Below, piece by piece: positions 17,737-38,775 of a DNA stretch of 46,593 nt. Below the pieces are notes generated by a model. The model was not told the origin of the DNA. It searched no databases and was given only the letters and a program-made list of their open reading frames with translations. Location: assembly GCA_010015805.1 (NCBI GenBank), contig ML978124.1:2542001-2588593 (forward strand), read 5' to 3'. The translations under genes were made by a program, and so were the position numbers. Numbering within the stretch: the first letter of the stretch is position 1; each line of letters starts with the position of its first letter. This DNA is from Rhizodiscina lignyota. Lineage: Eukaryota.

Positions 17737-17987
17737 ATTACTAACAAACTATAAGGGTAGTAAATAATTAGGAGTATATAGCTAAAATAGGCTTTTAAAG
17801 CTATTTTAGGGCTAAATTTACATTTTTCTAAGCTTAAATCGATATTTTTTTCGTTTCCCCATTAAATTAATTAATCTTATTTACCTTTAGTAAATCTTAG
17901 ATAAGGTAAGGTTAGTTTTATTAGGGATTTACTAACAAACTGTAAAGGTAGTAAATAATTAGGAATCTAGACGAAAATAGGCTTTAA
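17737..17987 (+). repeat. Pair of about 60-bp imperfect direct repeats between the two convergent transposon ORFs
   Basis: TTACTAACAAACTRTAARGGTAGTAAATAATTAGGA...AAAATAGGCTTT at about 17738-17797 and 17929-17987. Confidence 0.7.
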
Positions 17988-18109
17988 TAAGAGTCTTAGA
18001 CTATATTTCGAGTAAAATTCAATTTTAATTCCTTAAATTATCTTAATTACTAATAAAATTAAGTATAGCTAAGATAGAATTAGAGTAATTTATTAGATAC
18101 TTTTTATTA

Positions 18110-19050
18110 TATATCTTACCTTCTAAAAATATCCCCTATAGGCCTTAAGACTAGCTACTTACTATATACTATCTACTAAAAACTAGCTAAAAGACTTATA
18201 AGCCTATACCTTATTACTATACTACTTAATCTACTACTTTAATTTATTAAAGCTATACTTTATTAGGTTAAAATCTAGGCTATATAGTAGTAGAAACTCT
18301 ATAATTACGCTAGCTACCTTATATAGCTTAATAAAGCGTATATTCTTATAGATTAAGTAGTTATCTATAATTAAAATAGACTTTTCTAGCGTTATATATA
18401 GTAGTATAAAGTATTTAACCTATTCTATAAATACCTCTTAAAGTACTAAACTTTTAGTTACTAATATACTAAGAAGATAGCTATTAATACTTATAGTAGG
18501 GTATATACTCTATTACTTACCTCTACTTAAAGAGCTTTTATTCCTAGCTAGTATACTAATATAACTTTATATAAACCTTTAAATACTAGTCTTTCTATTT
18601 ATAGCGCTTTTATTAATAAAGATAAGGTATACTACTATATTACTACCTTCTAAGACTAGCCTTTCCTTTCTAGTATACTATATATATTCTATACTTTTAT
18701 ATTAATATTATACTTAAATAATATATAGTCTTTAACTTTATTAATATATGCTTTTAGTTAGTAATTAAAGTAGTTAAGAATTGCCTATATTATATCTTAA
18801 TTAGCTATACGACCTTAATACTATATACTAAGTATTATAAACTTCCTTTTCTATAATAGTAAAGAATCTAAGCCTTCTTAAAGTACGTATAGTAAGAGGA
18901 TAAGAGGTCCTAAATAGTTTAAGAGTAAGGCGAATACGCCGAATAGTATGCGTAGAGTACTTAGACTTACTTATAATACGCGCTAGTTCGAAATCAAGCT
19001 CTAATAAATTTATAATTCTATTAACCTTCTATAGCGCAATTCTTAGAGGT
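18110..19050 (-). pseudogene. RIP-degraded Tc1/IS630-like DD34E transposase
   Basis: Minus-strand reading LIFINKSA (ancestral LIFIDESA, codon 18612-18614), SILIIDNYLIYK (SILIMDNCSIHK, D at 18363-18365) and EFLLLYSLDFNLIK (EFLPPYSPDFNPIE, E at 18258-18260). All are in one frame with exactly 34 residues between D2 and E. N-terminal HTH-like TIRRIR...LF(G)T.YP...(G)R(P)R. Ends are approximate. Confidence 0.85.
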
Positions 19051-19077
19051 ATTATAAGGTAAGATATAACGTTATTA

Positions 19078-19162
19078 CGAGATATAGACGCGATTATATG
19101 AGAAATCGCTTAGAAACGCGTCTGGTGTTCGCGCCAAGCCTCGTGGCCTACCATTTAACGAA
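19078..19162 (-). repeat. Right terminal inverted repeat (85 bp)
   Basis: Reverse complement of 15618-15702. Confidence 0.95.
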
Positions 19163-20081: not shown

Positions 20082-20635
20082 TCATAACTTCGACCGGTCA
20101 GGATCCTGCTCACCGCCTTTTAATAAACGCTGAAGAGGTTCCTTGATCCATGCAGGCACACCCTCGTCCGTCACCTTGTTCGTTGCTCGCTCCACCCATA
20201 TCTGGATGAAACCGCCCACGGCCTTGACCTGCTCACTTCCTTCTTGGAAGATTCCCACTTCATACATCACACTGCTCTTTCCCATCTTCACGACTCTCAG
20301 TCCAATGTCCAACATTCCGGGATACTGTGCAGAGCCGAAGTAGTCGCAGTACGTGTTCGCGACCAGGCCGATATACTTCGACTCGGCGGTGCTGTATCCG
20401 CATTTGGTGATGAGATACGAGTTGATGATTGAATCGATCAGCACGCCGTAGACTGGATTATTGATATGATGGAACATGTCATTATCGTTCCTAAATCGTG
20501 TCTCAGTAATGCGATTTGGCGCACGCGACTTAATATTGAATCGCACCATCTTGTCCGATAATCTTCATGATACGGATAATCGCTTCGCTTTCGTTTCCTT
20601 TTTGAAGTCAAGTCCACCCCAAGAGATTGTGCCAT
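20082..20635 (-). CDS. Hotdog-fold acyl-CoA thioesterase (4HBT-like) with C-terminal SKL; one intron
   Basis: Spliced YRTRW-NDNDMFHHINNPVY motif, G.SSV.YEVGIF, and C-terminus DRSKL (PTS1). Confidence 0.85.
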
Positions 20636-21169
20636 TTTATCAGTTTATGAAATTTTAGAAAATCATAAAAGTATTGTCGTCCTCAACAGTCGATCCGGCA
20701 GCGGCTCTTGTGAGCCCCACGTTCCGTCGTTGCCTCGGCTTTTCGCGACACCGCCGAACTTGATTATTTTTACAAGCCTTGGGCTTGGAAGCAACTGATC
20801 ATTAAACAGGAGGCAATATAAAAGGCACAAAGTACTAATCGAACATCTAACCTTGTCAGTGCTATCACTGGCCCTCGAGTGAGCTCTACCCCCTCTCTGC
20901 TGCGGAAGAGCGGGAAAATATCTGGATGCTTGTCTTAAACGCAGCTCCTTGGCTCCGGTAACACCCCTGAATCAGGAAGGTATTGTCATTGATGGAGCGG
21001 ATTGCATATCTTGTGCATTTAGTTGTCTCGTTCTGTTTAGCAAGGAGAGGAGACGTGCACTCTCCTTGAGCTCCCTCAACATGAACAGATTGCGGCTCTC
21101 TGATTTCCTTCGTTTCATATCACATTCCCACATTTCCCAGACTCATTCGAAACTTGCACGTATTGAAAG

Positions 21170-22291
21170 ATGTACAAACTGATCTGCGTCATCGGCGCAA
21201 CCGGCAACCAGGGCGGTTCTGTCGCACGACGATTCCTGAAGGATCCTGAGTACCACGTTCGAGGAATAACGCGCAATCCGCATTCACCAGCAGCACAACA
21301 GCTTGCCGAAGTAGGAGTTGAGATTGTGCAAGCAGATCTGGACGATGTGAAGAGCTTGGAGTCTGCATTCGCCGGAGCTCACGTCATATTCAGTGTCACC
21401 AATTTCTGGGAGCCGTTTTTCCGTCCTGATTGTCGCACAAACGCACAAGAGCTTGGAATCAGTTGCAACAAGTACGCTTACAATGTTGAACTTCAACAAG
21501 GAAAGAACATAGCCGATGCTGTTGCCACTACTATTGACTCCCTGGCATCGAATGGCTTTCTTGTTTCCACATTGAGCCATGCGCGGAAGTGCAGTGGTGG
21601 AGCATTTCAGGAAGCGTACCATTTCGATGCAAAGGCGGACGTATTCCCATACTACGTACAAGAACATTACCCAGCGCTGGCAAAGAAGATGTCATGCATC
21701 CAAACTGGATTCTTCACTTCGAGCTACAAGCTCTTACCAACTGCGTACCTCGCAAAGGTCTGGGTGCCGCCGTCCATCACGTAACAATCTCGGTCTGTGA
21801 AGCTGACAATGTCCCAGCTTCCGGACGATAGCTTTCAAATGAGTTTCACTACCGATCCCGACAAGCCGGTTCCACATCTCGCTGTCAACGCCGATACCGG
21901 CAATTTCGTCTACGCTGTCGCAAAGATGCCTCCTGGGAAGCAATACATGGCCGAAGGCTCGACATGCAGCTGGAGCGAGTATATTAGGATATGGGGCAAA
22001 GTCACAGGTATGAAGGTCTCGTACAAGCAGATCACCTCGGACGAACTTGTCGCCGTGGTACCGGATAAAGCATTTGGGCGAGAAGTTGCCGACATGTTCT
22101 CGTATTCTTCAGATCCTGGGTATGACGGTGGAGTGAACTTGCTCACAGCCAGAGACATTCGCGACGTAAGTCTTCACTTTGCTTTAACGGATTGTGAACT
22201 GACGATGAAGGCTGGCATTGACTGTCCGATGACGAGTCTGGAAGACTGGATGAAGGAAGAAGATTGGAACGCAATACTAATCAATGAATGA
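21170..22291 (+). CDS. NmrA-like NAD(P)-binding protein (atypical SDR), two introns
   Basis: Motifs VIGATGNQGGSV, RGITRNP, ADLDD, FSVTNFWE, QGKNIADA and HFDAKA. Confidence 0.9.
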
Positions 22292-22757
22292 TATCGGCGC
22301 TTGAAATGAAATAAAACGGCTCGTCTACAACTTCGCCGCTCTCGTTATCGCGATATGTCAAGAAGCGGTAACAGCCTCAAGAGTCAAGCTAAGCTGTTCC
22401 ACGGCGCGGAGTATTCAATATATGCACAGGGCCACAACAGAATGCAGCGGGAAAGCTGTCGAGCTATCAATTGCTTGGCCTAGCGTCTTTTAGTCTTCTC
22501 CCTCATTCGCTTAAGCGGCGTGCTATCAGCAGTAATCATCATTTCATCTCAAACAAGTTTTCTGGCAATTCAAATCCTCCAACATTGATACAACGTTGCC
22601 CCAAACCGCCTGCGTTGTATTAATTGGCAGCGCATTTGGAGACAGCTAATCCTTTCTGGTTTCTACATTCGCCACTTGACTTCTTGCTCTCGAACTCCTG
22701 TTCGCCGCAGTACAATTTTATCCATCCCGGTTCATTAAGCGTACGATGGCGCTCATA

Positions 22758-24540
22758 TCATTGTATCTTGGCCAGCAGCTCGTCGTATATTGATGAATCT
22801 TCCATCTCTTTCGGCCGATCCACCTCTGCCCTCTCTCGGATCATCTGCGCCGCAGCTTCATTACGCGGCTTGACGGCACACTGGAAGACTGCCGGTCCAA
22901 ATACTGGGAAAGCACCCGCTACAGACATTATTAGCCAAATCCATTTTCAACAGGAGTGACAACGTACAATAGCCATCCGGTGGTGGAGAATTTGGCTTCG
23001 GCGTAATGTCAAAAGCCCAGAGAATCCGACTCATTACGATATACAAGCTCGCATCCGCGACATGCCGTCCTGGGCATTCTCTTCGACCAACTCCGAACGC
23101 AAAGTGCTGCCCTCCAGGACTTGCTCCTGGAGATGATCTCGGATCCCTCGGGTCAAGAAATCTCTCCGGCATGAACTTGTCCGGTTCGGGATAGTACTGC
23201 GAGTTCTTGTGGATCGCGTTCACATTTGGAATTACTGTAGCTCCTTTTGGTATCGACTTGCCTCTGTAAACATCTGCCTCGCTTGTGGCATGGATGAAAG
23301 CTAATGGCGTTGCAGTAGCCCATCTATGTAGCTCGTTGATCACGGCGTTCAAGTACGGCAGCTTCTCTCGGTCTTCCCAGTTTGGTAGACGGTTACGGCC
23401 CACTACTCGATCAATCTCTTTCTGCGCATGCTTCATCTGCTCAGGAAAAAGCACGGCTGCTTTGAAAAACCACTGTAGTGTCGTCGCAGTCGTTTCTGTA
23501 CCGGCTGTGATCAGTTCGGCAATCAGATGCGCGTACTCTGTCTCTGATAATTTCGTCCCTTCGTTCTGGAGTACTCGGGCTACGAAACAGTCTGGTGCAG
23601 TGCCATTGCGCACTCGTTCTTTCATTTGTTCATAAAAGACTAGATAGAAGGGCATGATCTGCCGTCGAATCTCAACTGCTTGCTTTCGCCATGGTGCAAG
23701 AGCATCAGGGAGATAGTCAAGGATGGGAATCCAATCAACCAGCCACGCTCCAGGCCGAATGTCTGTACCCATCAGTTGCTGATGCAAAATCTGGGTTTGA
23801 AAAGAGCTCTTACGTGTGAAGAAGTTTTGCATCTTCTTTCCAATTTGTTGAGGAATGAAGGCGTCTGATCGGTCGAATCGGCAGCCCATTCTAGCTGAAA
23901 TGTTAATTCCCATAGATCGAATTCGCACAGAAGTGACCCTTACAACATGCTGAACGTCACGCTTCCAGAATATCGAGCGACCTCTTGGAAGAAGGCGTCC
24001 GGTTCATCCAACAGATGCTTCAGCGTACGTCTGCTCTCATACTCTTGGTACGGCAAGAATATCTTTGCATTCTGCATTCCCAAGAAGCCATGGATAATTT
24101 TTCTATGCTCCTGAGACGGCCATTCAGTCGCTGCTGGAATGAACAAATCAAAGAGTACTTACACGCCATAAATCGCCATATTGCATATTCACAATTCTTG
24201 CTCCCTCTGTAATGAGCGTAGCCTGGTTCGAAGCTCTCGGTCTTGAACTGTACTTCTGGCCCTTCTTGATGAACAGATCATTGAACGACTCAGGGCTGTT
24301 CAAGACGATGACTGAAGACTGTCCCATCTTGTACGCGAATACGTCGCCGTACTGTTGACTCCATTCTGTGAGTTTAACGTGTAGTAGAGATCCTCGAAAG
24401 TCGAATATGTTGCCAAATATGGGCAGTCCCGGTGGCCCATTGGGAAGGTTCCGTGCTATGTTGCTAGCAATATAGAGCACAAATATGATGAGGAGGGAAA
24501 ACAAGATGTAAATCGTAAACTTGGAATTCGAGGTATCCAT
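22758..24540 (-). CDS. Cytochrome P450 (CYP64-clan-like), three introns
   Basis: N-terminal TM anchor with PNGPPGLPIFGN, I-helix AGTETT, ExxR (ELHR), PERF and heme motif FGVGRRECPG. The last exon ends LLAKIQ-TGA at 22758. Confidence 0.92.
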
Positions 24541-25011
24541 TGTGATGTCGATTTTGTGAGTTTGTCCGATTACAGATCAACAGCGGAACAGGTGGATTTG
24601 CAGGTCTGCTTATGATTAACGAGTATGTTCTGATTAATCAAGCCTCTCACACCCATCTCCGATTGTCCGATGATGATACTGAATTCCGTATGTCATGCAT
24701 GAAGCATTTTCTTCATTCCGACATTGCTGGTTGGCGGTCGTGCCGCCCTCCGACAATCACCGTTAACCGCCGTGCTCTCTTCAGGACATGAGGCTCTATC
24801 CAGGATTTGACAAAAATGCACGCAGAATTCTCGGGCATGAGTGTTAAGATGTAAATGTTTACGTGATAATCTGGCTTCTGTTTGTGGGTCGCGACAAACG
24901 TCGGCGCGAGGTGGTACTCCGAGTTATCCTAAATAATGAAACTCGTTGTTTGATACTCCGCAGAAAACACAAAAAAGACTATAGGCATCGCGAAAGGGCG
25001 TATCAGGAAAC

Positions 25012-26132
25012 ATGAAAATGAAAGAGGCACATGTTTCCCCAGACACTAGTGTACAGATTGTCGATAGTGCCGTTCCGCAACCTGGTCCAGAAGAAGTTCT
25101 CATCAAGGTTGTGTGTGCCGGTTGCAACCCGAAAGATTGGAAGTATCCTCATTTTTCGGGGGTTACCATCAATTCGGGGGATGATATCGCTGGATTTGTT
25201 GAGCGTGTGGGAGAAGAGGTGTACGAATTCAGGCCAGGTGATCGTGTCGCTGCCTTCCATCAAATGAGAGTTGGAGGAGGAGCATTCGCCGAGTTTGCGA
25301 TTGCGCCAGCTTCGACGACCTTCCATATTCCAGAGAAAATCTCATTTGAAGAGGTATTCAACTACAATGACAAATATTTGCCGGACTATTGGGAACTGAC
25401 ATGTGTCAGGCATCAACGGTTCCGCTGGCTGCTCTCACTGCAGCCGTTGCGCTCTATCATAATCTCAAACTTCCACTTCCATGGGAGCCAGCGAAAGAAA
25501 AAATACCACTGCTCATCTACGGAGGTTCGAGTGCGATCGGTTCTTTTGCTATTAAACTCGCTCGCCGCTCGAACATTCATCCCATCATTGCCGTGGCAGG
25601 AAAGAGCAAGGATTATGTCGAATCGCTTCTTGACCCATCCCAGGGAGATGCGGTTATCGACTATCGAGATGGAATTGACGCTGTTGTGTTTGGTATACAG
25701 CAAGCGTTGAAGGCGGCTGATGCTGGATCGGCGTTTCATGCGTTCGACGCAATATCGGAGAAGAATACTTTTCACGCTTTGAGCAAGGCTCTCGATCCGA
25801 TCGGACACATTACGTTGGTGCTACTTGAAAGCAATTACACATCAATACCTGAGTCAATACGAACTTCGTTGACGTTTGTTGGCATCGTACACACCGGACC
25901 GCCGCCTTTAGACCCAAAGCAAGGCGTCCGATATGTTGCTGAAGGGAATGGAAGGGATTTCGGCTTCGTATTCTCTCGATTGATCGGAAGAGCCATGCAA
26001 GAAGGTTGGCTTTCTGGGCATCCTCAGGAGGTCGTTCCTGGTGGGCTTAGTGGGCTGTCCACCGCTCTGAACAATCTGAAGGCAGGAAAGGCAAATGCTG
26101 TTAAATATGTTATCAAGCCAGTTGATACATAG
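25012..26132 (+). CDS. MDR-superfamily enoyl-reductase-like / quinone oxidoreductase; one intron
   Basis: Motifs NPKDWK, GDDIAG.VE.VG, FRPGDRVAAFH, SFEEASTVPLA and LLIYGGSSAIG. Confidence 0.9.
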
Positions 26133-26495
26133 AGCAATCAAAATGGGGATTATTTCAACTTCATCTTTGTCACAAACTGGGGCATCGACACGACAATCTG
26201 AAGACTCCAGTCGCGTCTACTTTACGTCGCATCTGATTGCATCTATGATCACTAACTCTCTTCGATGCGTCTGCAGCCTGTTTTCGATGATCTATACGGT
26301 TTGTGATTACTACGGAGACTTATCGGGGTGCGGGTTGGTAAGCGTTAACATATGCCCAATAGAATAAGTCAGTCTGAAATGTTCCGATGCTTCTGAGGCC
26401 GACATTAACAATTCTCATTTTGTTCCGACATCGTTTAAATACAATCTGGACGCGTCGATTCCCTATCCTGGCTTTGTCAGTTGACTGCGAATCTA

Positions 26496-28176
26496 TTATA
26501 ATCTTGCGACCTCTCCTTGGACGAATTTGTCGAACGCACAATCAGCATCGGCGATAAAGTCAAAGCTGAGCATGTTTCGCTGATACTCCAGGTTATTCCA
26601 GCTAAACACAGTTGGAGTTTGCGTCTCCCAGTTCGTCTGTCCAAGAATTCGGTCCCGCTCGTCACGCCCCGGTCCATCTGGCATGTGGAACAGCCGCTGG
26701 TTGTTGATCGCACCTCGCACATTGACGGTAGTTCGATGCTTGCGAAGTTGCTCGAACATCTTGAGGATATGAGGGATGGAAAGCTTTTCTGGAATCTGGC
26801 CAGAGGAAGCACTCTTTCCCAGCCGACCAAGAAGATGTCCAAGGATTGCTCCGTCTTCCACGGCCATTGCAGCTCCTTGTGCTTGATAAGGCAATGTTGG
26901 ATGAGATGCATCTCCGATGATCACTACGTTGCCTTTGGTCCATCGAAGAAGTTCGTCATTGTGGCATAGTCGCCATTTGAGCACATGGGATACGAGCCCG
27001 AGCACATCGGTCAGCCTGGCAGAGAGATCAGTACAAGCATGCAGCTGCTGGAAATTAAAGCTTTACATGGGATCCCATCCAGAAAAGGCACTTTGCATCT
27101 CCTTCACGTCGCCTTGGATTGTGCTGAAACCCGGCGGAAGCGTGTCAGGACAAACTAGGACCAGATTGTACACCGAGCCACCCTTCACCGAATAGAGGAC
27201 CGCGTGGGAATTTGGGCCCATCCAAACATTTGTCTCTGGTGTCTTGATCAAAGCATTGAGCTTCTCATTGTTCAGGCTCTGTAGTTGCTCGACAGTGAAG
27301 GTGGCACGGTATGCCATGTCCCCAGTCGCCATTGGTGACGCATCATGTTGCAGGAGAAGGCTCCGCGTCTTCGACCACAAGCCGTCTGCACCGACCACAA
27401 CGTCGCCATAAAACTTCTGCCCTGACTTGGTTGTTACGCTCGCCTGGTCTATTGTAAAGTCGACGCTTTCAATTTCCACTCCGAGATGGGTTCGGACGCC
27501 GCGGCGAATGGTCTCGTCATAGAGAAATCGGTGGTAATCGGCACGGTGGATGACGCTATGCACATGTCAGTAATTCAATCCAAAATGCAATTCAGGACCA
27601 ATTCATGGCACATACTACCAAGGCGCACCGTAATCCCTCACATATGCCTCGCCTCCAGCTCGTCGGAGCAGATTGCGGCCATCTTTGTAACTCCGAAGGT
27701 TTCCGGCCTGTACAGCGACAGCTCCACTGCTTTGAACTTTGTCATCGACGCCGAGATATCTCAGGGCCCGTACTCCATTTGGAGGTATCTGGATACCTGC
27801 CCCAATCTGGATCCAATTCAGCTTCAATACTCCGTACTTTATGGCGGAACCGGGAACTGGAAGTATCGTACTGGGAGGATCTCGGGCGTCTTTTCAAAGA
27901 CTTGAACTTTCAGACCATTCTGCACGCACGAGAGGGCAGTGGCCAGACCTCCTGCGAGCTTATCAGTGAGGAGTCGAGTTTTTTTTCTCCTTTGGGCGGA
28001 AATGCCTTGGAGATTGTTGCTGCATTGTGGAGGACAGAGACTCGAAATTGTGGGTCTGAGCGGAAGTGGTGTGGGTGCACCTTACCAAGCCCGGCTCCGA
28101 TTATGATTACTTCCATCACTCCTTTCTCAACGGACAGTTCCTTTGAACCATCGGTCATTTCTATATCAGCTTCCAT
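26496..28176 (-). CDS. Salicylate-hydroxylase-like FAD monooxygenase, multi-exon, C-terminal ARL
   Basis: Motifs IIGAGLGGL, IGAGIQIPPNG, HRADY, VGADGLWS and GDASHPTLPYQAQGAAMAVEDG. The start may instead be 28158. Confidence 0.9.
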
Positions 28177-28501
28177 TTCCTCCAGTAGCCCGCGGCATAC
28201 CCCACTGTACATTTCAATCCCGGAGACCGGTACCCTTGTTATGCGAGAGACCTAGAAGATGCCAAATCCACCGAGAACCAAGCGAGGCACGGCAGATGAC
28301 GGTGTCTCGCTCTTTTGGGTTTCCCATGGATTCTGGGGCTATTGATAGATGACGATGTTCCGCCAATTCCCAAAATTATACGGAGCTTAAAGTTCATACG
28401 CTTCGGAGCAGGATACGCCTTAGTTCGGTATGACTTGAGATCCAAACCAATCTTTCCCTTGTCTTTCAACTTTTTTTCAGCATCAGTCACTATTGTCTCC
28501 C

Positions 28502-29431
28502 ATGATGTCAATCAAATCCTTTATTCGTTTTCTTGATACACAAGGCAACACGGCGTACGGAGAGCCGACAACAAGCCTCTCCGAACCTTTAGAAGGAAAA
28601 AAAGTCGAAGTTCTGACCGGTGATCCATTGACAGGGTTGTCAAAGACTGGGAAGCAGGCGGAAGTATCGAAAGTAGGTTTTGACGAAGTTTCCTTGCTGT
28701 GCTGACTTTTGTAGCTCCTTTGTCCTCTACCAACAACGCCGATTGTTCTCTGTATTGGTTTGAACTACCAAAAACACGTGAATGAAGCAAAGGTACTTCC
28801 AATCGCCATCCATATTGAAACGGTTTAACATGAGAGCCAGCTCCCTGTACCCAAGTACCCATCGGTATTCACAAAACCGGCAGACGCTCTCACAGGATCA
28901 TCAACTTCCATCAGCATACATCAGGATCTCCAGAAGCAACTCGACTACGAAGGGGAGCTCACCGTCGTCATTCGTAAGACGGCAAAGGATGTATCCGAAG
29001 CAGATGCATTGCAGTATGTATTGGGCTACACAAACGGGAATGACCTTACGTGTCGCTACTATCAAGTCCCGGAGAACTCGGGAGGCCAGTTCGGTTACGC
29101 AAAGTCATTCGACAGTTTCGCACCCATCGGTCCAGCCATTGTGATGGCTGAGGTCATTCCTGATCCACAGAAACTGAAATATCAAACAAAGGTCAACGGA
29201 GAGGTTAGACAGAGTACTGGGACGGATGATATGATTGCCAGTGTTGCGAAAATCATTGCACACCTCAGCCGTGCCACGACACTCCGACCGGGCACGGTCA
29301 TCATGACAGGTACGCCTTCAGGTGTGGGATTCTTTATGGAGCCCAAAAATTTCCTGAAAGATGGCGATGTTGTCGCTATAGAATGTGATGAGTTGGGCGT
29401 GTTGTCAAATAAGATGGTGTTTGAGAAATAG
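28502..29431 (+). CDS. FAH-superfamily hydrolase (FAHD1/FAHD2, acylpyruvate/fumarylpyruvate-hydrolase-like), two introns
   Basis: Motifs CIGLNYQKH, VFTKP, LDYEGEL, GYTNGND, KSFDSFAPIGP and GTVIMTGTPSGVG. Confidence 0.92.
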
Positions 29432-29764
29432 AGCAATAGACCTTCAAGTACTCTTCAAATGAACTACCCGCATTATTGATGGAAAATAATCTTGCTACGG
29501 CAAGGGTGCCATTACTTGGAATCAGTACACCGAACAAGCTCTCGCAGTATCCGAAATGGCCCACTGCTGCAGTCCGTTTTCATTGTCATCCATTGTATTG
29601 AAGAACCTGAGCAACGCGAGAACTTTGATAATTTGACTGCTCCAGTTCACTTCAACGGCAATACGCCCTGTCATCTTCACCTCACGATACGAAGTATATC
29701 ATTCTTCCTGTATCATATAACTCGGCTCATAATACTCAGATTATAAATTGCTACACGGATTCAG

Positions 29765-30894
29765 TTAAGCGGGAGCCGGAATAGGAACATTCGCATCATT
29801 CATTTCAGTAGTCACAAATCCCAACGGAATGTTTGGACCCCACACATACAGACTCTCTGGAGACTCAATCTCTCGACCCCATGGTGTGTCCTCATTCACA
29901 AGATCACCATCAGCGTAATGCTCAAGAATGTTACCCATTGCATCGAACCTGGAGTATGGAATGAATCAGTGATCTTATCATAGTGCAACTTGGAACTTGT
30001 GGAGAACAGGAGATTGTACCAGTAATCAAATACCTGGCTCCCAAGGACATGCCGTCCAACACCCCAACAGTTTGTCCAGCCCTTGTTCGTGAGCCAGTCA
30101 TGGCCAAGGAGCTGATCATCCATGTGTTGTACCTCGAAGCTGGCATGATGAACATGCGCTTTGGATTTAGGGGTGTGTCCGAGAAAGAATGACTACAAGA
30201 CACTCATTGTTAGCTTAAGGCATTCAATTTATAAATCCAAATAACCCACGTGATGATCTGTATATGTCTGTCCCTTGTCAATGTGAAGGAAGCATGTTAG
30301 ATCCTCGTTGGTCTCTGGATTGTACACGCTGTCTGTTACTTTGAGATTGAACGTTGACGTGTACCAGCTCAGCGTTTTCTTGTAATCTGCTGGCGGAATC
30401 ATGAAACCGTAATGTCCCAGTTTGTGAATGTGTGACGGGCCGGTTTTCATGCGAACAAACTCGCCCTTTCGTTGCTTTTCAGAAGGGGTGTTAATCGATG
30501 TCATTGGTTCGGATTTCTCCCCCAATGTTTCCTGTCCGTAGAGTAGTCGAATTTCCACTCCGTTTGGATCTTTCAGTGTCACGACCTTTCCGCCTCCTGG
30601 TTCCTTTGAATCTTTGATGCTCGAAGCAGCTGGCAAGCTACTTGCTCGTTCCAAGTCATCAATAGATTGTACCAGCCAACCTCCTGCCACAAAACGTTTT
30701 CCTTGCGGGTCGGTGCTCTGCTCCGCGACGTAGACGAAAGGCTGAGGACCTGTCCCTCTATAGTAGACTCGCGAGTCGACTCTTTCCACTTCTTCTAGCC
30801 CAAAATCCTTTAAGAATTTTTCTTCCTTGGCCAGATCTTGGTGACTGTAGTGCACGTATGCAAGACTGTCGAGGTTGATCTTACTGCCACCCAT
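29765..30894 (-). CDS. Two-domain VOC/glyoxalase-fold extradiol ring-cleavage dioxygenase (trihydroxytoluene-oxygenase-like), two introns
   Basis: Motifs LAYVHY, FLKDFGL, PGGG..V.L.DPNG, HKLGHYG, TDHHSFF, HVHHASFEV, WGVGRHVLGSQVFDYW and LEHYADGD. His/His/Glu metal ligands lie in the C-terminal domain. Confidence 0.88.
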
Positions 30895-31497
30895 TGTCGG
30901 CTGGATGCGGAGTTCGGGGGTTACTACTCGATTGGGAATCGTACACGTGACGGGCACCGATCGATCGTTGATGGATTTGCGGGTTGATGCAAACGACTGC
31001 AGGAAACTGTCACGATTTCCGGCCCAGATAATCGGCGGTACTGACTCTTTTACACCGGGCAGCGTGCAGCTGTAGTGGTTGAGCCGTACGTCAGCCTTTA
31101 CCCAAATTGATCAAGATCCGCGAAGCACCGAGGAGAGCCGCGCGGAGGGTGCGGGAGGATGAGTCTGGAGTACAGACAGTTGCTCGCAACCTAATATGCC
31201 GGTGGATTTTGATGCTTTCATATCTTTTTGATTTGATTTCAGAAATATTAGTAAGATTTGCAGCCCGAACTGGTTGTTGATTGACAGGGGAAGGGCGTCG
31301 GAACTGCGAACTGCTAATTTCTTACTAGGATACGAGGATCACGCTGATTAGCGAATTCAGGAGGCTATTGTGTGGACAAGCCACAGTGGTGCAGGTGTGC
31401 GGAGTGACCAGCCTTCAATAAATCCAGCGAAATTGCTCAATTGAAAGGTTTTTCGGTTTTTCAATTGATGACGTCCGAGCGAGACTTTGTACTCTGA

Positions 31498-33586
31498 ATG
31501 GTCACCCAAGCGACACAATTGATAATGCCAATGGCGTCTTCAGTTCCAGTTTTAATTGCAGGAGGAGGCCCAGTTGGTCTCGTTGCAGCATACACACTTG
31601 CGCATCATGGAATCCGATGCGTGCTCATTGAGCGAAACGAGACGACGACAAAATGGCCGAAGATGGATATCACTAATGTTCGCTCGATGGAGATACTTCG
31701 TGGTCTTGGTTTGGCAGATGAGCTCAGAGAACAAGGTATGTTGTCGACTGAAGGAATTCTGCGAAGGACTGTGAGGCGCGGCCGTCTGCGGCCGCATCAA
31801 CTGAACGACACACAGGAGTCGGTCAAGACTTTTCTTTCGACGTTATCATCAGTACAGGATTGGGTGGAAAATGCGAAGATATTACAAGATGGGTGTGTCT
31901 TAATTGCGACGGAGTAAGACTTTGATAGCTGACGGCTTATTTTCAGAAATTGCAATCGCCAAATGAATGGCGGAAGATTATTAAACAGCAAAACGATGGG
32001 TCAATGCCGCGCGAACCTTACCAGCGGTGTTCCCAGGCCATTTTTGAAGCATGGCTAAAAGTGAAGATTGAAGCGAATGAATTGATTGAAAGCCACTGGA
32101 GCACGAAGCTTGTTGATGTGCAAGAGGAGGCTGGTAAAGTTTTTGCGACGGTTCAGGAAGGCGCGACTGGTTCAACACGAACAATCGAAGCTCAGTATCT
32201 GATAGGATGCGATGGTGGAGGGAGCATAACTAGAAAGAAGATGGGACTTGGCCTCACTGGAGGCCCTCTGTAAGTGATCCGCCTGGTGGTACAATGATTG
32301 CGCCCACACTCACACTGACTCTGCTGAAGCCCCCTCGCAATGGGTCTGGTCCACTTCAAATCCCGTGATCTTACTCGACTTCATAAACAAGGTCAATTCT
32401 GGCATATCTTCTTCACTCATGGCGGTGTCATCATTTCGCAAGACGAAATCGACACGTGGACAGTGCATCTCCCTGTACCTCTAGACTTTGACATCAAGAC
32501 GCTCGATCCGGAAAAGCATATCTTCCAAGTACTTGGTGGACAAGGAGATTCGTATGAGATTGACGTCGATGAGATATTGGTGTCGAGTTCTTGGAGACCG
32601 AATAACGCGATCGCGGATCGGTATCGGTCGGACGGAGGGCGGGTATTCATTGCTGGTGATGCTTGTATGAAATTCATTTGACTATCAAGGCGCAATGTCA
32701 GAAAGCTAACATGTAGCTGCTGAAAGGTCACCAGAACATTCCCACCGGCGGATATGGGATGAATACAGGCCTTGCTGATGCATATGATATATCCTGGAAG
32801 CTCGCAATGGTTTTGAAAGGTGCCGGCGGGGAAGACTTGCTGGAATCATACGAAGTTGAGAGGCGCCCTGTTGCGATACGAAATGTCCAGCGTGCAGCGG
32901 AGCACATGAGTGTCCACCAAGGCTATGCCCAAAAGGCAATGGAAGCTGGATCCGAGGTTATGCTTAGCAACTCGGAGGAGGCCCAAGCAATCAAAGCGCT
33001 CACCAAGGAGCATGTCGAAACCAATGATGGAGAGAACAAGGACCACGGAATAGAGTTGGATTATAGACTACGGCCATCTCCAGTGATTCCAGTCGAGGTT
33101 GGAGTAAAAGAACCAGAATGGACACGGCAGGCATATGCTCCTTCAACAATACCTGGATCTCGAGCACCACATGTATTTCTCAAAGACGGTTCCACAAGCA
33201 TCTTTGACCTCCTCAGTAAGGACTACACGGTTGTCGATTTTTCGCAAGAGGGCTCGATTTCTTTGCAATTGGAGAAATTGGCGCGACAAGGAGGATTCCC
33301 ACTTGCTCGAGTGCATCTACCAAACGAAGAGCATGTGAGGAAAGTTTGGGAACGTGATGTTGTCCTCGTTCGGCCTGACTATTACGTCGGTTGGCGATCC
33401 GATTCGAAAGAGAACTACGACGATCAACAGTTGGATGATGTTCTATCAAAGGTATTTGGCAAAGACTCCTCCGGCAAGGCGAAGAGAGAACACATAAATG
33501 GAGACCACATTGTATTTGCAGGAGCTCAGAGGTCATTTAACCAAGATGAAGAGAAAGTAGAAAAGTTGGCCGAGTTTCAACGTTAG
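31498..33586 (+). CDS. PheA/TfdB-family FAD-dependent aromatic hydroxylase (FAD_binding_3), multi-exon
   Basis: Motifs VLIAGGGPVG, YLIGCDGGGS, GRVFIAGDA.HQNIPTGGYGMNTG, LLESYEVERRP, PGSRAPH and VLVRPD. The start may instead be 31531. Confidence 0.9.
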
Positions 33587-33630
33587 AGAATACGAGTGAA
33601 CTCGTAGTTCTTTCCAAGTATTTCCAAGCA

Positions 33631-36123
33631 TCAGGAGACAGTTGTATGTGGTGGAGTGCTCTGACGAGGCATCAAGCATTTTAAGAGGAAATGATCATCC
33701 GAGTCGGTCAAAGTAGAGTTCGAACTGAAGCGTTCAGTCAATATGTCCATCACATCTGTTTGTTGTCAGCAAATCGAGATATTTTCTATTCTTGCAGCGT
33801 TGGCAGCGAACCGAGAGTAGCAGTTCCGACATCCCAGTATTCCGAGATGCGCGCCACGGTTTCACGAATCATTTCTCTCTCAAGTTCTCCTCGAGCAGGA
33901 GTTGGTGCTGCAAAAGTCGCTTGCAGATAGGCACCATATGGACCAAGGAATGCGCAGACTTGGAAAGGCTGTATAGTGATGCAATACTCTGGCCGCCATA
34001 TTCGAATCGCTCGGAGAACAGGATTGAGCGTACGTCGGTACCTTGGAGCGTATGAGAGATTGATTGTTCCGCTTGCTGAGACTGGACGACGTGAATTGTT
34101 TGGATGAGCCTCTGATGGTGATTCTCGTGTCGGCTCGCTTGCGGAGTTTTCATTGCTCGCATCCATGACGTATGTAAATGCACTGCCTCTGTCAATCAAA
34201 TGGAAGGACTGGAGAGATAAGGAACGATTAACGTTACCCTTGAAGCATTATATGCATTGCGATGATCCAATTATCATGACCCACAGACTCCTCCTCAAAC
34301 AATAATGTGTCGGAGCTCACATGGAATTGGGCTGGGATGCTCATTGCAAAGCAATGGATCACATCTCCGAGATCGCGCATCTCCATGGAACAGCCTTTGC
34401 CTTTGAGTGACATCTCATGGCTGCAAATCATAAGTTGATTTGCAACGAGATACCACGCATGCGGGTTGAGATTGGTAGATGCTTTTAATTGCTTCCATGA
34501 ACTCAGGACGTCGTCATCGAGAAATGCGGAAGTGCGTGGAGTTTCTGAATACCAACTTTCATCTGTGCTTGGAAGTAACACATGCATCCGACCGCGGTCA
34601 ATGGTGAGTGGGCGGCACCTTATGACTGACGCAAAGTTGTCGCACTCTACGGCGGCCCACCAAGCTCGGCGAAGTTCCTCTCGGCGAACCCATTCGATCG
34701 CAGGGAGAGATTGAGTCTTTGATCCTCGCAAATCCTCATCAATGGTATTGAGTGAAAGACTGTACGCTGCACGGACGCAGTTTCCAGCAAGAAACCAAGC
34801 CTTTCCGCCTGGTGCGCAAGCCAGCCAGAAGAATGCAGCCAACAGAGAGCCGTGGAGGAACGTGAGGGATGGTGTGTCCATTTCGGCATACATCAGAAGC
34901 CGATTGATGAGTAGCCCTGACTGCCGTGCAAATAGGCGGCCTCTTTTCTTTCGCGGGATTGCTGAAAATATTGGAAGATTTGAGAATCGAGCTGATAGTG
35001 CCATCATTCCGTAAATGACGAGTGCATCCTCGATGGGAAGTGTCGGTTTGTCGTCTGCAATACCCAGGAGTTCTGGGAGGCGACTCTGGTATTTTGGTCG
35101 ATTGATTATGGGCACGAAGGCGTGGATCTTCTCAAAGTATGTTTGGATTCTGTGATAAATATCAGAGGGATTGGCGAGAGGGGAAGGAATGGGCTCACAA
35201 AGCACGCGCAACAGAAGCATTCACCATGAGAGTAACGTTTGTTTCCATCTCTTCATCATCCAGTTCCCCAATTGAGTGATCGATGTGGTGTGAACTGCTG
35301 ATCTGTTAGTATCCTGATAGTGAAGATGTACCGCCGACTACCTTGACATATACTTGCTGCTCTGTCGGCTTGTTTCGCTGCTGTCGCTACCATTCATGGC
35401 GGAAAGCAAATTGGGGAAGCCAGGGCTCGGCAAAGACATGCCGAATGTCTCTGAATTTGAGAGTTCTGGAAATAAATCACCATCCGTGGGAGACCACGAG
35501 AATCCGGCCGCGAAGTCTGGTAGACTGGGGCTTTGCTGTACATCTCCGGGCCCTCCAGATTCTTGTATCAGCCAGTTGCTTGATCTTTGAAGTCCGTAAT
35601 ACATGTCGAGGACATTCTTTTGAGGTTGTATCGTAGTCTGATCTGGTTGAGACTGAGGGTAAAAGCCAGTGTGCGTGTCGCCCACAGCATTCTGAGCGAT
35701 CGAAGGACCGGCATCCTGGATCTGGATTTCTCCAGAAGACTTGCCATCAGCTTCACATGTCTGTGTCACCAGGCTTGTCCCATTCGTGTCTCCGAGCGTG
35801 TGTGCTTCAGAACTTCCTGGAGAGCTTTGTTCGGATGTGTCACGCTCTAGCGTTACGCGTCGTCGCTTTTCTGGCGGTCTGGCTGATGTTTCCACTGTTG
35901 GTAGCCTGCGTGTCGTTGGAAACACGCACAAATTCCCAGTCCGCATGCAAAGAGAGCAGATTGGGCGCTTCATGTCACATTTTGTCTTTTTTCGTTTGCA
36001 AGCTTCACAGGCGCGATGCGGGAGAATTGTCGCTCGAACTCCCTCTGTCGTGCTGACAAGTCCGTACCGACCGTTCATGTCTTGCCGCGGACCCGCTGAA
36101 AAGGGTACAAATATCGCTTCCAT
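33631..36123 (-). CDS. Zn(II)2Cys6 transcription factor with fungal_trans domain (TF2), multi-exon
   Basis: 6-Cys cluster ACEACKRKKTKCDMKRPICSLCMRTGNLCVFP, plus YFEKIH..VPII and EELRRAWW. The end is 33631 if a final short intron is used, otherwise 33786. Confidence 0.88.
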
Positions 36124-36898
36124 GATGGACTGTGACCGATTGAGAGTCCTCTAGCCCATGGCCTTACGAAGACGGCGGTTCAATAGAGACGGGAGTGGAT
36201 GGTGATTAATGAAAGTGTAGGTCTTTTTGCGGGGACGCCAAGATCTGGGGTGTTCAGGCCGGGGTTCGTGTCCGCCCTGCTTTCCTCCTGCAATCCGCCA
36301 CATTTCCCGAGCGATCCCGAGGATTACATATAAATTGATAATCTCGTGCCTTTTAAATGTCATCTTTTGACTATGCGATACTGTCGAAATGAATGCACTT
36401 GCGCTAGAGCCATCTTCGTCCCAATTCGATTTCCGCACAATGCTGCAACTGCTGCCGCCCGCTTTCTTCGCCAAGATTAGCACTTCTCTTGGAGCGGACA
36501 TGGATTTCTTATGATTCTTTGAGACTATTCATCTCTTAGTGGCTGTGCAAAGTGCTGTGGTGCATTGAGGAACATGTAGCTTGCGACTATCTTCGAGATG
36601 GAGAGCCTCCGCCCTCATAACCAGTGTGTTTGAGACCGAATCGACCCAACCAGAGCAAGTCTATCTCATAGACTAAATGATAGAGATGGTTTCAACAACT
36701 AATAGACACTGCAGATAGTATCACGATAGAACGGAATACCGATCCCGATTGAAGCTACATGGTAAATTCCAGACGTAACGGTAATGTGCCGGCTGCTAGC
36801 TTTTCTATCCCTCTATTCTTTATTTCTTTTCCCCTAGCACTCACATACTTACAATATCAACCTGATCCTCTCTATCTTCAATCGAAGATTTCTTCTAT

Positions 36899-38775
36899 TC
36901 AAGTCCGTTCAAGACCTTTGCCTCTTGTGAAGAGCGCCGCAACGAAGCCGATAAAAGCGAAACCAGAAGACGCGATGAATGCCAGTCTGATACCCTCGTA
37001 GTACACCATTTGTGCAGACATTCGCACTTCTAGCGGCAAATCGCGGAGTGCTGCAACTGAATGTCGAACTTCGTCAATGACCTGTACAAGCGAGCAAGAA
37101 AGGTTAGCTATTTCGCGCCTCCATGTCGTATGAGTGTATGGAAGGGGGAAACGATGAAAGGCGCACTCTCCATTTATTTGGAATCTCTCCGAGAGCCACA
37201 GGCAAGCGGCTTTTAAGCACGTTCTGAGTAATTGCGGAGGTTACTGCAACGCCCCAGACGGTACCAAGAGAACGAATAAGGTACACTGTTGAAGAAGAAA
37301 CAGCGTGGTCTATTCGGCCTATCAGTCAAATTTCCTTGGAACAAAGAGAGTTTTTTGCTGACCGGAATGATCAAATATAGCCAGGAACGTAAACAATGTG
37401 CCGGGATAAGCCATTCCTTGCCCAAGATTGGCAGGAAAGAGGTACACGATGTACTTCCAATCCGCATCCCGGAAACTGAGAGAAGCAGCCAGAGCATTGC
37501 CAACCAGCATGAGGAAGGCCCCAACCCTGACCAGCACTGCAAGCTTCCCCCAGCGGGACATGACTACTCCAGCAATCACGCCGCCGACTGGTGTCGCGAG
37601 CGAAGGAATCACAAGTCTACTTCCAGCCTTGGTAGCAGACTCGAGAAGAACGACTTGGAAGAACAAGGGAATGAGGAAGAGATACTGCTGAGAATTAGCA
37701 TGCGTGTTTCATTTTCAGGCTTCAAAGTCGAGCACTCACCGCATATGCAGCCATTCCGAAGAAAACGTTTGCCAATTGTGTGGCAACTGGCTGCTTACCA
37801 TGAAGCATCCGCAGCGGGATGACCGGCATCGCCTTTGTCTTTGCTTCTACAACGAGGAACAGTGCGAGCAACACCACACTTCCGACCAAGGTCGATATCA
37901 CCCACGGGCTACTCCAAGGAAGTTCGTTCCCCCCAAGGCTCAGAGCAACAAGCTGAGAGGACAAACTCAAGATCAGCAGCGTAGCTCCAGCGATATCAAG
38001 CTTCCCCCAGACTGAGCGTTTCTGGTCACCGTCGGGAGCAACACCCGTGAGATTCTCCGGGGACTTTATAGCAACATGGCCAATACCCAGGGCGAGAAGA
38101 GAGATTGGAACTTGCAGCAGGAAGCACCATCGCCATCCAATTGTGTCTGCAATCGCACCGCCAACGCTGGCTCCGCATATGCTTCCGAAACCGAACAAGA
38201 CGTTCTGCACTGCTTGGTAAGCCCCTCTCTTCCTGAACGGAATCAGGTCGCTGTTGACGATCGTGGCCACTGTCATTAAGCCGCCGCCTCCGACGCCCGT
38301 CAATGCTCTCATTGTATTGAGTAGCCAGATGTATTTTGCTAGTCCGCAGCCCAGACATCCAATCATAAAGGTGAGTGTAGCGATGAAGAAGCAGATGCGT
38401 CGACCGAAGATGTCCGAGAAGCGGCCATAAAGAGGCTGGAACGCCGTATACGTGATTAGATATGAGGTAGTCAGCCACGACGCAGTATTTGCGGCCGAGA
38501 ACTCTGAAGCGATGAGGGCGTACGTCGACGCTGTGATTGTGCCATCAAAACCCGAAAGGAAGACATTTGCGAATATTGCTGCTCCCATAATCAGTCCAGC
38601 TTTGAAATCAAATCTGAAGTTATTCAGCATACATACCGATCTCAATCCAAATAAATCCTTTCGGAGCCTTCCACCGCTGTTGATCTTCCAAAAGCGTCGT
38701 GGTTTCTCCCACGTCTTGTTCCTCGTCTTGATCGGATGATGACCCTGTCAACAACCTATGAGAGAATTGATCCAT
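36899..38775 (-). CDS. MFS transporter, DHA2/Vba-type (14 TM), multi-exon
   Basis: Motifs FLSGFDGTITAS, SWLTTSYL, QPLYGRFSDIFGRR, RALTGVGGGG and GWRWCFLLQVP. The last exon ends KGLERT-TGA. Confidence 0.88.

Follow-up and report, generated by a model that had tools for sequence, protein, structure and literature searches.

A five-gene core for candidate extradiol cleavage of a phenolic ring in the fungus Rhizodiscina lignyota

Introduction

Nine adjoining genes of the wood-dwelling fungus Rhizodiscina lignyota lie at positions 20082-36123 of a 46,593-nucleotide stretch of contig ML978124.1 (hereafter the window, to which all coordinates refer). A preliminary description had set them out as a candidate meta-cleavage (extradiol) cluster for a polyhydroxylated aromatic compound. 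The unit that is supported is a core of five genes at about 26.5-36.1 kb. They encode an MNX1-type flavoprotein, a PheA/TfdB-type hydroxylase, a VOC-family protein, a FAH-family enzyme (the FAHD protein) and a Zn2Cys6 transcription factor (TF). This core is better supported than the preliminary description could show, yet the cluster is smaller than nine genes.

Gene content of the locus

The gene content was read from a Pfam scan of the 113 stop-to-stop open reading frames (ORFs) of at least 100 amino acids across the window, with a further scan of 61 of the 139 ORFs of 70-99 amino acids (all selected outside the cluster plus five inside). Spliced models were assembled by hand, and their GT-AG introns have 42-80 bases. 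The scan finds all nine genes, each with the family that had been named for it, and they are arranged as four divergent pairs plus the TF gene. The models for the NmrA, MDR, FAHD, VOC and PheA-like proteins read through from ATG to the stop codon without interruption. Outside two AT-rich blocks the GC content is about 0.47-0.50. No polyketide synthase (PKS), non-ribosomal peptide synthetase (NRPS) or terpene-cyclase domain occurs among the Pfam matches of the scanned ORFs, in agreement with the preliminary description, which had remarked on the lack of PKS and NRPS genes.

The core starts with the gene for the MNX1-type flavoprotein (26499..28212, minus strand), which has five exons and an uncertain start codon (28116 to 28212). 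From the shortest start it encodes 436 amino acids with no internal stops, and its Pfam match is to FAD_binding_3 (26499-27566). Divergent from it is the FAHD gene on the plus strand (28502..29431; exons 28502-28672, 28715-28792 and 28841-29431; 279 amino acids), with a match to FAA_hydrolase at 28829-29428. The FAHD gene is convergent with the VOC gene on the minus strand (29765..30894; Glyoxalase/VOC match at 30232-31110). Exons 30250-30894, 30020-30192 and 29765-29948 of the latter encode 333 amino acids, the same length as P0001, the 100% identical protein recorded for R. lignyota itself. Next, divergent from the VOC gene, is the five-exon gene for the PheA/TfdB-type hydroxylase (31498..33586, plus strand; 610 amino acids), with FAD_binding_3 and Rng_hyd_C matches at 31498-33583. 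The TF gene completes the core (33789..36123, minus strand). It has at least four exons and a 3' end that is not settled, and its Zn_clus (7.8e-9) and Fungal_trans (4.7e-17) matches span 34237-36150. Two short introns at the domain junction close its reading frame.

The other four genes lie at lower coordinates. A thioesterase of the 4HBT-fold acyl-CoA type is encoded at 20082..20564 on the minus strand (Pfam 4HBT at 20085-20564; database protein P0180, 165 amino acids). The annotated protein and a single-ORF reading differ at the N-terminus, and a 5' intron is therefore likely. The NmrA-like gene (21170..22291, plus strand) has three exons and encodes 338 amino acids. Its Pfam NmrA match (3.4e-29) lies at 21167-22288, and in the PDB the protein matches NMRAL1/HSCARG at 1e-21. 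The cytochrome P450 gene (22756..24540, minus strand; Pfam p450 at 22864-24576) is annotated as P0060, a protein of 525 amino acids that matches positions 1-445 of the 462 in the Pfam p450 profile. The hand-built model has its frame remainder off at one junction. Divergent with the P450 gene is a two-exon gene for an MDR-family reductase of 354 amino acids (25012..26132, plus strand; ADH_N and ADH_zinc_N at 24985-26129). By similarity this reductase would be PIG3/quinone-reductase-like and distantly LovC-like (NCBIfam quinone_pig3, 4.7e-16 on the N-terminal exon; LovC in the PDB, a distant match at 6e-6).

The ring-cleavage enzyme

Judged from its sequence, the VOC protein has every catalytic residue expected of a type I extradiol dioxygenase, and this is its predicted activity. 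In phmmer searches its matches to solved structures are weak in sequence, with the alignment spanning the full length. They include 23al/9x2g, entered as 'glyoxalase/bleomycin resistance protein/dioxygenase' (2.9e-8), 3b59 (8.6e-7), BphC (1han, 1.5e-5) and catechol 2,3-dioxygenase (1mpy, 0.013). H161 and H231 of P0001 align to two metal histidines of BphC and E282 aligns to the metal glutamate of 3b59/23al, while H215 and Y272 fall on the catalytic histidine and tyrosine in the 1han and 3b59 alignments. In BphC the ligands are presumably His146, His210 and Glu260, and the second-sphere residues His195 and Tyr250. The alignment puts the metal triad in the C-terminal domain, like that of BphC. 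A profile search with the VOC protein through 1.84 billion representatives returned 2375 relatives at E <=1e-3, including 285 at E <=1e-30. Across 87 aligned relatives, with identity down to 27%, H161, H215, H231 and E282 never vary, while at least 90% of the sequences keep Y272, H214 and D213.

The predicted fold agrees. An AlphaFold (AF2) model of P0001 built from the 87-sequence alignment (pLDDT 95.6, pTM 0.93) supersedes a poor earlier one from 14 sequences (pLDDT 66). It has two tandem VOC domains, as in BphC, catechol 2,3-dioxygenase and homoprotocatechuate 2,3-dioxygenase. All of the Foldseek matches listed for it are extradiol dioxygenases or VOC-fold proteins (TM 0.64-0.82), for example 3b59 (0.75/0.82), 1mpy (0.72/0.78) and 1f1r (0.77/0.80), and HpaD-type enzymes (homoprotocatechuate 2,3-dioxygenase) are among the best. 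The earlier proposal that this gene encodes an extradiol dioxygenase is thus borne out as a prediction, from both the complete set of catalytic residues and the modelled fold.

What does this enzyme cleave? Its NCBIfam scores stand at 58.4 bits for catechol 2,3-dioxygenase (cut-off 320), 51.7 for HpaD (321), 50.3 for BphC (366) and 14.9 for HsaC (450). No characterised subfamily is reached (58 bits against 320), and the scores therefore point to no single substrate class. The protein belongs to a separate clade of predicted type I extradiol enzymes, which has 285 representatives at E <=1e-30.

Conserved linkage of the core genes

That the core genes lie side by side goes far beyond what chance would give, and a flavin hydroxylase, a VOC protein and a FAH-family enzyme form a conserved module. 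The evidence comes from 76 metagenomic loci, each with a gene for a relative of the VOC protein (30-57% identity), and these loci represent 48 lineages when grouped at >=93% DNA identity. Neighbouring homologues were called by tblastn at E <=1e-5. A homologue of the FAHD protein (34-52% identity) is present on 38 of these loci, in 25 of the 48 lineages. When only lineages with enough flanking sequence are counted, it is found in 12 of 17 with at least 3 kb on both flanks and in 10 of 15 with at least 5 kb. The two genes are close together: in 20 of these 25 lineages they lie no more than 1.2 kb apart, in convergent or divergent orientation.

A Pfam survey of 348 ORFs within about 7 kb around the VOC gene, on 23 long loci from 22 lineages, extends this picture. 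A FAD_binding_3 monooxygenase is close to the VOC gene in 13 of the 22 lineages, a P450 in eight, a fungal Zn2Cys6/Fungal_trans factor in seven and an SDR in four. In one lineage, seen in the loci L001 and L077, homologues of the TF, VOC, MNX1-like and PheA-like proteins stand in a row, with 30-63% identity to the proteins of the window (45-63% for the PheA-like protein and 30-52% for the TF). The VOC protein of this lineage is 44% identical to that of the window. On L027, a high-GC contig that looks bacterial and also carries genes for ribosomal protein L31 and PrmC, three consecutive genes encode a hydroxylase, a VOC protein and a FAH-family enzyme. Finally, two database proteins, P0350 (910 amino acids) and P0424 (874 amino acids), are predicted fusions of a PheA-type hydroxylase with a VOC protein of P0001's family. 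The proposal that hydroxylase, dioxygenase and FAH-family enzyme belong together, made at the outset from their adjacency in a single genome, therefore finds support in the related loci, the three-gene row on L027 and the fusions.

Two details of these sequences can be added. The visible stretches of P0350 are rich in alanine and arginine, which suggests a high-GC bacterium. L077, the only locus to come from a VOC-pattern scan of bacterial and archaeal genomes, is recorded as part of a metagenome-assembled genome (MAG) of Deltaproteobacteria, and it was considered as a bacterial relative. This was rejected. L001, L002 and L077 represent one organism at 99% identity, and L001 is a metagenomic locus that carries Zn_clus and Fungal_trans domains. 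The VOC match in L077 is split into three pieces in an intron-like manner, and L077 matches the TF of the window by tblastn. It looks like a fungal contig that was binned into a bacterial MAG.

Could the genes instead serve biosynthesis? In such a scenario the oxygenases and the VOC protein would act on an aromatic natural product synthesised elsewhere and remodel it, with export by the MFS pump encoded beyond the TF. P450s, NmrA-like proteins, MDR reductases (here distantly LovC-like) and MFS transporters (here with a weak TRI12 match) are all common in fungal secondary-metabolite clusters, and some biosyntheses do involve ring-cleaving dioxygenases (PMC11371914). However, the window is free of PKS, NRPS and terpene-cyclase domains, and none was found within about 7 kb around the VOC gene in the 23 long related loci. 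A PKS beside the homologous clusters had been named beforehand as an observation that would tell against catabolism, and a PKS or NRPS domain is close to the VOC gene in 0 of the 22 lineages. Moreover, the conserved partners of the VOC gene (a FAH-family enzyme and MNX1-type and phenol hydroxylases) are hallmarks of aromatic catabolic clusters, as such clusters are described in the text of PMC10832562. A tailoring role is accordingly held to be very unlikely.

Extent of the cluster

The preliminary description had treated all nine genes as one cluster. The linkage just described upholds this for the core, and conserved co-location was found for the core only. Homologues of the thioesterase, NmrA and MDR proteins occur in 0 of the 76 related loci, all of which are distant (VOC identity <=57%), and the thioesterase is conserved in the manner of a housekeeping gene. 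One explanation is that the nine genes are not one pathway, and that a conserved core has come by chance to lie beside an unrelated thioesterase, NmrA protein, P450 and MDR reductase. The missing homologues speak for this, as do the conservation of the thioesterase and the thioesterase-NmrA promoter, which is without the 9-mer described below. On the other side, differing accessory genes are to be expected in loci this distant, and two closer relatives suggest that at least the P450 is no stranger. The P450 P0061 (75% identical) and the VOC protein P0002 (74%) come from the same source and are both recorded with a contig of 11,544 bases. Likewise the P450 P0143 (64%) and the VOC protein P0003 (71%) share a source and are both recorded with a contig of 77,742 bases. 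Equal contig sizes and sources strongly suggest that the P450 travels with the core. In addition, the P450-MDR promoter does contain the 9-mer. Chance assembly of the whole is therefore judged improbable, if somewhat less so than a tailoring role.

The accessory genes can then be taken one at a time. The P450 is probably a member of the cluster, and the MDR reductase probably is too, by its position between the P450 and the core. The NmrA gene may or may not be a member. The thioesterase is 59-85% identical to 119 listed relatives, many of them from Dothideomycetes and black yeasts and including Zymoseptoria, Dothistroma, Zasmidium, Pseudocercospora and Hortaea, and none of the 120 listed rows falls on the 11,544- or 77,742-base contigs. 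On this pattern of conservation it behaves like a housekeeping gene, and it is probably a bystander beside an AT-rich block, outside the cluster.

The promoters offer a further hint. The 9-mer AAATCCACC has four copies in the window, three of which lie within the divergent promoters of the P450-MDR pair (24591..24599, minus strand), the MNX1-like/FAHD pair (28264..28272, plus strand) and the VOC/PheA-like pair (31201..31209, minus strand). A 9-mer common to exactly these three promoters arose in 4 of 500 dinucleotide shuffles. This is a weak hint that the six genes share a regulator. CGG-N7-CGG and CGG-N4-CGG pairs also seemed over-represented in the core promoters, though nothing is concluded from them. 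A second word, the 10-mer GTGCCTTTTA, has exactly three copies in the window (20819, 36346 and 39440). All of them are in promoter regions, namely the one between the thioesterase and NmrA genes and those preceding the TF gene and the MFS gene. Such sharing is frequent by chance, however, since 143 of 500 shuffles gave some 9-mer common to three of the six regions.

The surroundings of the nine genes are also of note. Two AT-rich blocks (15651-19100 and 45351-46450) have a GC content of about 0.24-0.35 and hold no ORFs of at least 100 amino acids. The first borders the thioesterase side and may be a repeat, degraded by repeat-induced point mutation (RIP), that acts as a boundary. On the 3' side of the TF, at 37325-42897, there are genes for an MFS transporter (the weak TRI12 match), an arylsulfotransferase (Arylsulfotran_2, 3e-52) and a Pyr_redox_2 flavoprotein. 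The phenol sulfotransferase and the transporter could belong to a phenolic-acid cluster; homologues of these three proteins were found in none of the 76 related loci. Upstream, at 3612-13111, lies a second set of genes with a catabolic look. It consists of a ketopantoate-reductase-like gene (3612-4697, minus strand), a gene for a Clr5-domain protein (5074-7299, plus strand), a gene for a second Zn2Cys6 factor (about 7434-9776, minus strand) and a gene for a canonical two-domain fumarylacetoacetase (11719-13111, plus strand; TIGR01266, 2.5e-54). No homogentisate dioxygenase was seen with this set.

Hydroxylases, FAH-family enzyme and a proposed pathway

The first of the two hydroxylases had been called salicylate-hydroxylase-like. 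A PDB search places it more specifically, near the fungal decarboxylating 4-hydroxybenzoate/vanillate 1-hydroxylases among the group A flavoprotein monooxygenases, as far as kinship in sequence can tell. Its two large exons match 8gsm, entered as '4-hydroxybenzoate decarboxylase', at 9.9e-39 and 4.6e-28. Behind it are 8x38 (4.9e-22 and 5.9e-22) and 8r2t, which are the fungal flavoproteins PcMNX1 and GsMNX1, respectively (PMC13559804). Matches to 3HB6H-type enzymes (4bjy and kin, 4.9e-11 to 1e-6) and to salicylate hydroxylases (1e-7 or weaker) are more remote. Enzymes of the PcMNX1/GsMNX1 type are described in the text of the same source as converting 4-hydroxybenzoate, vanillate, protocatechuate or syringate to hydroquinones by oxidative decarboxylation (PMC13559804). 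It had been suggested that the cluster hydroxylates or decarboxylates its substrate to a triol. The kinship with MNX1 fits the decarboxylation; the substrate remains a guess.

The second hydroxylase combines FAD_binding_3 matches on four exons with the C-terminal thioredoxin-like ring-hydroxylase domain Rng_hyd_C (9.6e-14). It matches PRK06126 in NCBIfam, and its solved relatives are RebC, 2-hydroxybiphenyl 3-monooxygenase (HbpA) and 2,4-dichlorophenol 6-monooxygenase (TfdB). Trichosporon phenol hydroxylase is a distant match (3.6e-7).

How might these enzymes work together? We infer the substrates, the products and the order of the two hydroxylases from the families of the proteins, and the following scheme is one that we hold with moderate confidence. 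The MNX1-type flavoprotein would convert a substituted 4-hydroxybenzoate to a hydroquinone by oxidative decarboxylation. The PheA/TfdB-type enzyme would then hydroxylate the hydroquinone ortho to a hydroxyl and give a 1,2,4-benzenetriol (a hydroxyquinol-type compound). As an Fe(II) type I enzyme, the VOC dioxygenase would open the ring of this triol by meta-cleavage, beside the diol and distal to the third hydroxyl. The product would be a 2,4-dihydroxy-6-oxo-dienoate, the keto form of which is a 2,4-diketo acid. In other words, it would be an acylpyruvate, the substrate class of FAH-family hydrolases. Acting as a hydrolase and not as a decarboxylase, the FAHD protein would cut it to pyruvate and an oxo-acid of three or four carbons, either malonate semialdehyde or a substituted analogue of it. 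The Zn2Cys6 factor would turn on the divergent gene pairs, which would make this a self-regulated cluster for the catabolism or detoxification of a phenolic acid. At a guess, the P450 may hydroxylate or demethylate an upstream compound, and a role for the MDR or NmrA proteins may be to hold diols and triols, which auto-oxidise, in the reduced state.

A shorter route would dispense with the triol. Perhaps the VOC protein cleaves the hydroquinone made by the MNX1-type enzyme directly, like the bacterial VOC-fold enzymes PcpA and LinE. The adjacency of the MNX1-type gene fits this, and fungi do cleave methoxyhydroquinones directly, by enzymes of the homogentisate-dioxygenase type in the accounts given in the text of PMC12420386 and PMC13559804. 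However, the sequence and fold matches of the VOC protein are catechol-type extradiol enzymes, with no PcpA/LinE-type entries in phmmer at E <=10 or among the Foldseek matches listed. Like BphC, the VOC protein has its metal triad in the C-terminal domain. A hydroxylation step just before cleavage is also favoured by the fusions of hydroxylase and VOC protein and by the conserved partner of PheA type. Direct cleavage of the hydroquinone seems the least probable of the alternatives considered here.

The final step is harder to place. The FAHD protein matches FAA_hydrolase at 5.1e-60 over profile positions 22-213 of 214, and its first exon matches Rv2993c-like_N at 4e-4. Its relatives in the PDB are HpaG (6.2e-48), 8sky (2e-46), OPET decarboxylase (6.5e-40), diketo-deoxyrhamnonate hydrolase (8e-33) and FAHD1 acylpyruvase (6e-26), and further ones are fumarylpyruvate hydrolase, maleylpyruvate hydrolase and HHDD isomerases. 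The top NCBIfam match is diketo-deoxyrhamnonate hydrolase, a 2,4-diketo-acid C-C hydrolase (153.8 bits); the protein reaches 144 bits on the HpaG C-terminal model, where the cut-off is 276. The C-C hydrolase, decarboxylase and isomerase relatives thus score about alike. A His-x-x-Glu pair is present in the second exon, a feature that we take to be common to several FAH reaction types. The type of reaction cannot be read from such matches. Hydrolysis of a polyketo-acid, which the preliminary description had assigned to this protein, is not supported, the top structural relative being the decarboxylase/isomerase HpaG.

This leads to another catabolic alternative. What if the ring that the dioxygenase opens is that of a catechol, either a plain one or one with a carboxyl group (homoprotocatechuate, protocatechuate or 2,3-dihydroxybenzoate, for example)? 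The FAHD protein would then be a decarboxylase/isomerase, like HpaG or OPET decarboxylase, or a hydratase, on a muconate-type product. The closeness of HpaG and OPET decarboxylase, with the HHDD isomerases near them, is in line with this, and the catechol 2,3-dioxygenase, HpaD and BphC models give the VOC protein much the same score. In addition, the database protein P0357 joins an aldehyde-dehydrogenase fragment to a VOC domain of P0001's family. However, such routes need an aldehyde dehydrogenase, a tautomerase, a hydratase/aldolase pair and an alpha/beta meta-cleavage-product hydrolase, and the scanned ORFs of the window contain none of these. An MNX1-type neighbour would yield para-diols, which require one more hydroxylation and hence lead to a triol, and the top NCBIfam match of the FAHD protein is after all a diketo-acid hydrolase. 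Cleavage of a catechol is therefore regarded as unlikely, though it is the strongest of the alternatives to cleavage of a triol.

Several observations weigh against the proposed route through a benzenetriol. The best solved relative of its putative hydrolase is a decarboxylase/isomerase (HpaG, 6e-48), and this protein misses all NCBIfam equivalog cut-offs by a wide margin. The VOC protein likewise falls below every equivalog cut-off and so outside each characterised subfamily. A semialdehyde dehydrogenase like DntE, recognised by an Aldedh domain, is absent from the scanned ORFs of the window. In the related loci, five of the 17 well-flanked lineages are without a FAH neighbour. The lineage of L001, L002 and L077 has no FAH gene within 8-10 kb, and in the one genome of this lineage that was searched the FAH homologues sit on other contigs. 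P0350 and P0424 are gene predictions and could be merged calls. As to shared regulation, AAATCCACC came from an open scan, a 9-mer common to any three of six regions arose in 143 of 500 shuffles, and there is no enrichment of AAATCCACC in 77 related loci (1 copy against 5.7 expected).

A wider role for the module

The upstream partners of the module are not constant. RPE65-type (stilbene/carotenoid) cleavage oxygenase genes adjoin the VOC-FAH pair in two of the 22 lineages (L044:2118-3958 and L047:11728-13626), a hint that in these lineages the module may be supplied with stilbene fragments of the resorcinol type. In a third lineage an Amidohydro_2 gene (L037:15345-16253; 1 of 22 lineages) lies about 4 kb from a VOC-FAH-hydroxylase group. 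We take Amidohydro_2 to be the family of the non-oxidative hydroxybenzoate decarboxylases. The variation of the upstream genes among the related loci (RPE65-type, amidohydrolase-type, other flavoproteins, P450s) suggests that VOC and FAH are a shared lower module fed by different phenolics.

A broader idea follows this line, and it is offered as a tentative one that is rather more doubtful than the pathway proposed for R. lignyota itself. Fungi might hold a further, hitherto uncharacterised central route, in which VOC-type meta-cleavage of hydroxyquinol-like triols is followed by a FAH-family acylpyruvate hydrolase and leads to pyruvate, not to 3-oxoadipate. The route would be an old, portable module and a common funnel for lignin-, stilbene- or lichen-derived phenolics. 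It would include many ascomycete lineages with varying upstream enzymes, among them MNX1-type decarboxylases, P450s, stilbene/carotenoid-type oxygenases and amidohydrolase-type decarboxylases. In bacteria-like sequences the hydroxylase-VOC-FAH module takes the form of the three-gene row and of the hydroxylase-dioxygenase fusions.

These possibilities can be set against what the literature says of fungal ring cleavage. According to the text of a source from 2021, only intradiol cleavage had been described in fungi (PMC10512348), and extradiol enzymes are called 'less common in fungi' in a text from 2025 (PMC12388069). For lignin-related compounds, the characterised fungal extradiol enzymes are of the homogentisate-dioxygenase type only, as stated in the main text of another 2025 source, where fungal VOC-type clades without reference enzymes are said to 'warrant further investigation' (PMC12420386). 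Together with PMC10832562, these sources know ring cleavage in fungi from intradiol, cupin/homogentisate-type and, more recently, DUF3500 enzymes only. The initial remark that characterised fungal ring cleavage is not of the VOC type agrees with what PMC10512348 and PMC12420386 state in these passages. In open-access main texts no function assigned to a fungal VOC-type ring-cleavage enzyme was found, nor were a fungal gene set for trihydroxytoluene or orcinol or meta-cleavage genes of black yeasts.

The locus provides a concrete case, with a dioxygenase whose predicted active site is intact, a conserved downstream partner, two plausible upstream hydroxylases and a regulator. It is a good entry point to a class that the field itself has flagged as unexplored. 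If the proposed route is true, a pyruvate-yielding meta-pathway would be added to fungal aromatic catabolism. This would bear on how carbon from plant phenolics, those derived from lignin included, is turned over, and on the engineering of fungi to funnel aromatics.

Comparison with known systems

The bacterial systems come first. In the dinitrotoluene (DNT) route of Burkholderia we take DntD to be a VOC-type enzyme and DntG a member of the FAH family. Three of the four Dnt-like enzyme types occur together in the window, the missing one being the Aldedh type, which is absent from the Pfam matches of its ORFs. The route as given in the text of PMC10602510 uses the monooxygenase DntB, the trihydroxytoluene oxygenase DntD and the isomerase/hydrolase DntG, and ends in pyruvate. 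Its lower part resembles the route proposed for the window in that a flavin hydroxylase provides a benzenetriol, extradiol cleavage opens it and a bifunctional isomerase/hydrolase leads on to pyruvate (PMC10602510), a likeness in pathway logic. In contrast to the window, the DNT pathway is bacterial, plasmid-borne and directed at a xenobiotic, and it includes the coenzyme A (CoA)-dependent semialdehyde dehydrogenase DntE. The window for its part adds an MNX1-type decarboxylating hydroxylase and a fungal TF.

A second bacterial parallel, already drawn in the preliminary description, is the meta-pathway for the flavonoid A-ring encoded by fde in Herbaspirillum and ifc in Variovorax. As far as the hydroxylase and the VOC dioxygenase are concerned, the analogy is sound. 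In the account of PMC11069340 the flavin hydroxylase FdeE makes a triol-type ring, which is opened by FdeC, a glyoxalase-type protein with the VOC fold. However, these systems are bacterial, and the analogy does not extend to the third enzyme. No FAH-family enzyme is named for the route in the text of that source, where the candidate C-C hydrolase of Variovorax is an alpha/beta hydrolase (PMC11069340). The homoprotocatechuate meta-pathway shares with the window HpaG, the best solved relative of the FAHD protein, and HpaD-type enzymes, which rank with the VOC protein's best fold matches. That pathway also has HpaE, HpaF, HpaH and HpaI, whereas no equivalents of these appear among the Pfam matches of the window's ORFs.

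Among fungal systems, the hydroxyquinol route of Candida parapsilosis and of white-rot fungi (MNX1, MNX3/phenol hydroxylase and an intradiol hydroxyquinol 1,2-dioxygenase) has the same beginning. There too, by the description in PMC13559804, an MNX1-type enzyme is followed by a second flavin hydroxylase, with a Zn2Cys6 regulator in the cluster. However, the second hydroxylase of that route is a phenol hydroxylase, whereas that of the window is PRK06126/TfdB-like. Further on, the hydroxyquinol route relies on a maleylacetate reductase and on a dioxygenase of the intradiol, Fe(III) type. Neither family is present in the window, where a VOC extradiol enzyme and a FAH-family enzyme take their place.

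The nearest fungal parallel is the gallate cluster, which acts through 1,2,3,5-tetrahydroxybenzene (Martins et al. 2023, PMC10832562). As described in the text of that source, it resembles the window in combining a flavin monooxygenase, a FAH-like enzyme and a non-classical ring-cleavage enzyme, often with an MFS transporter and a TF. The ring-cleavage enzyme itself belongs to another family. In the gallate cluster it is a DUF3500 protein (PMC10832562), whereas the window has no DUF3500 match among its ORFs and has a VOC protein in that place. The R. lignyota locus is thus a new fungal variant of a pathway logic known from bacteria.

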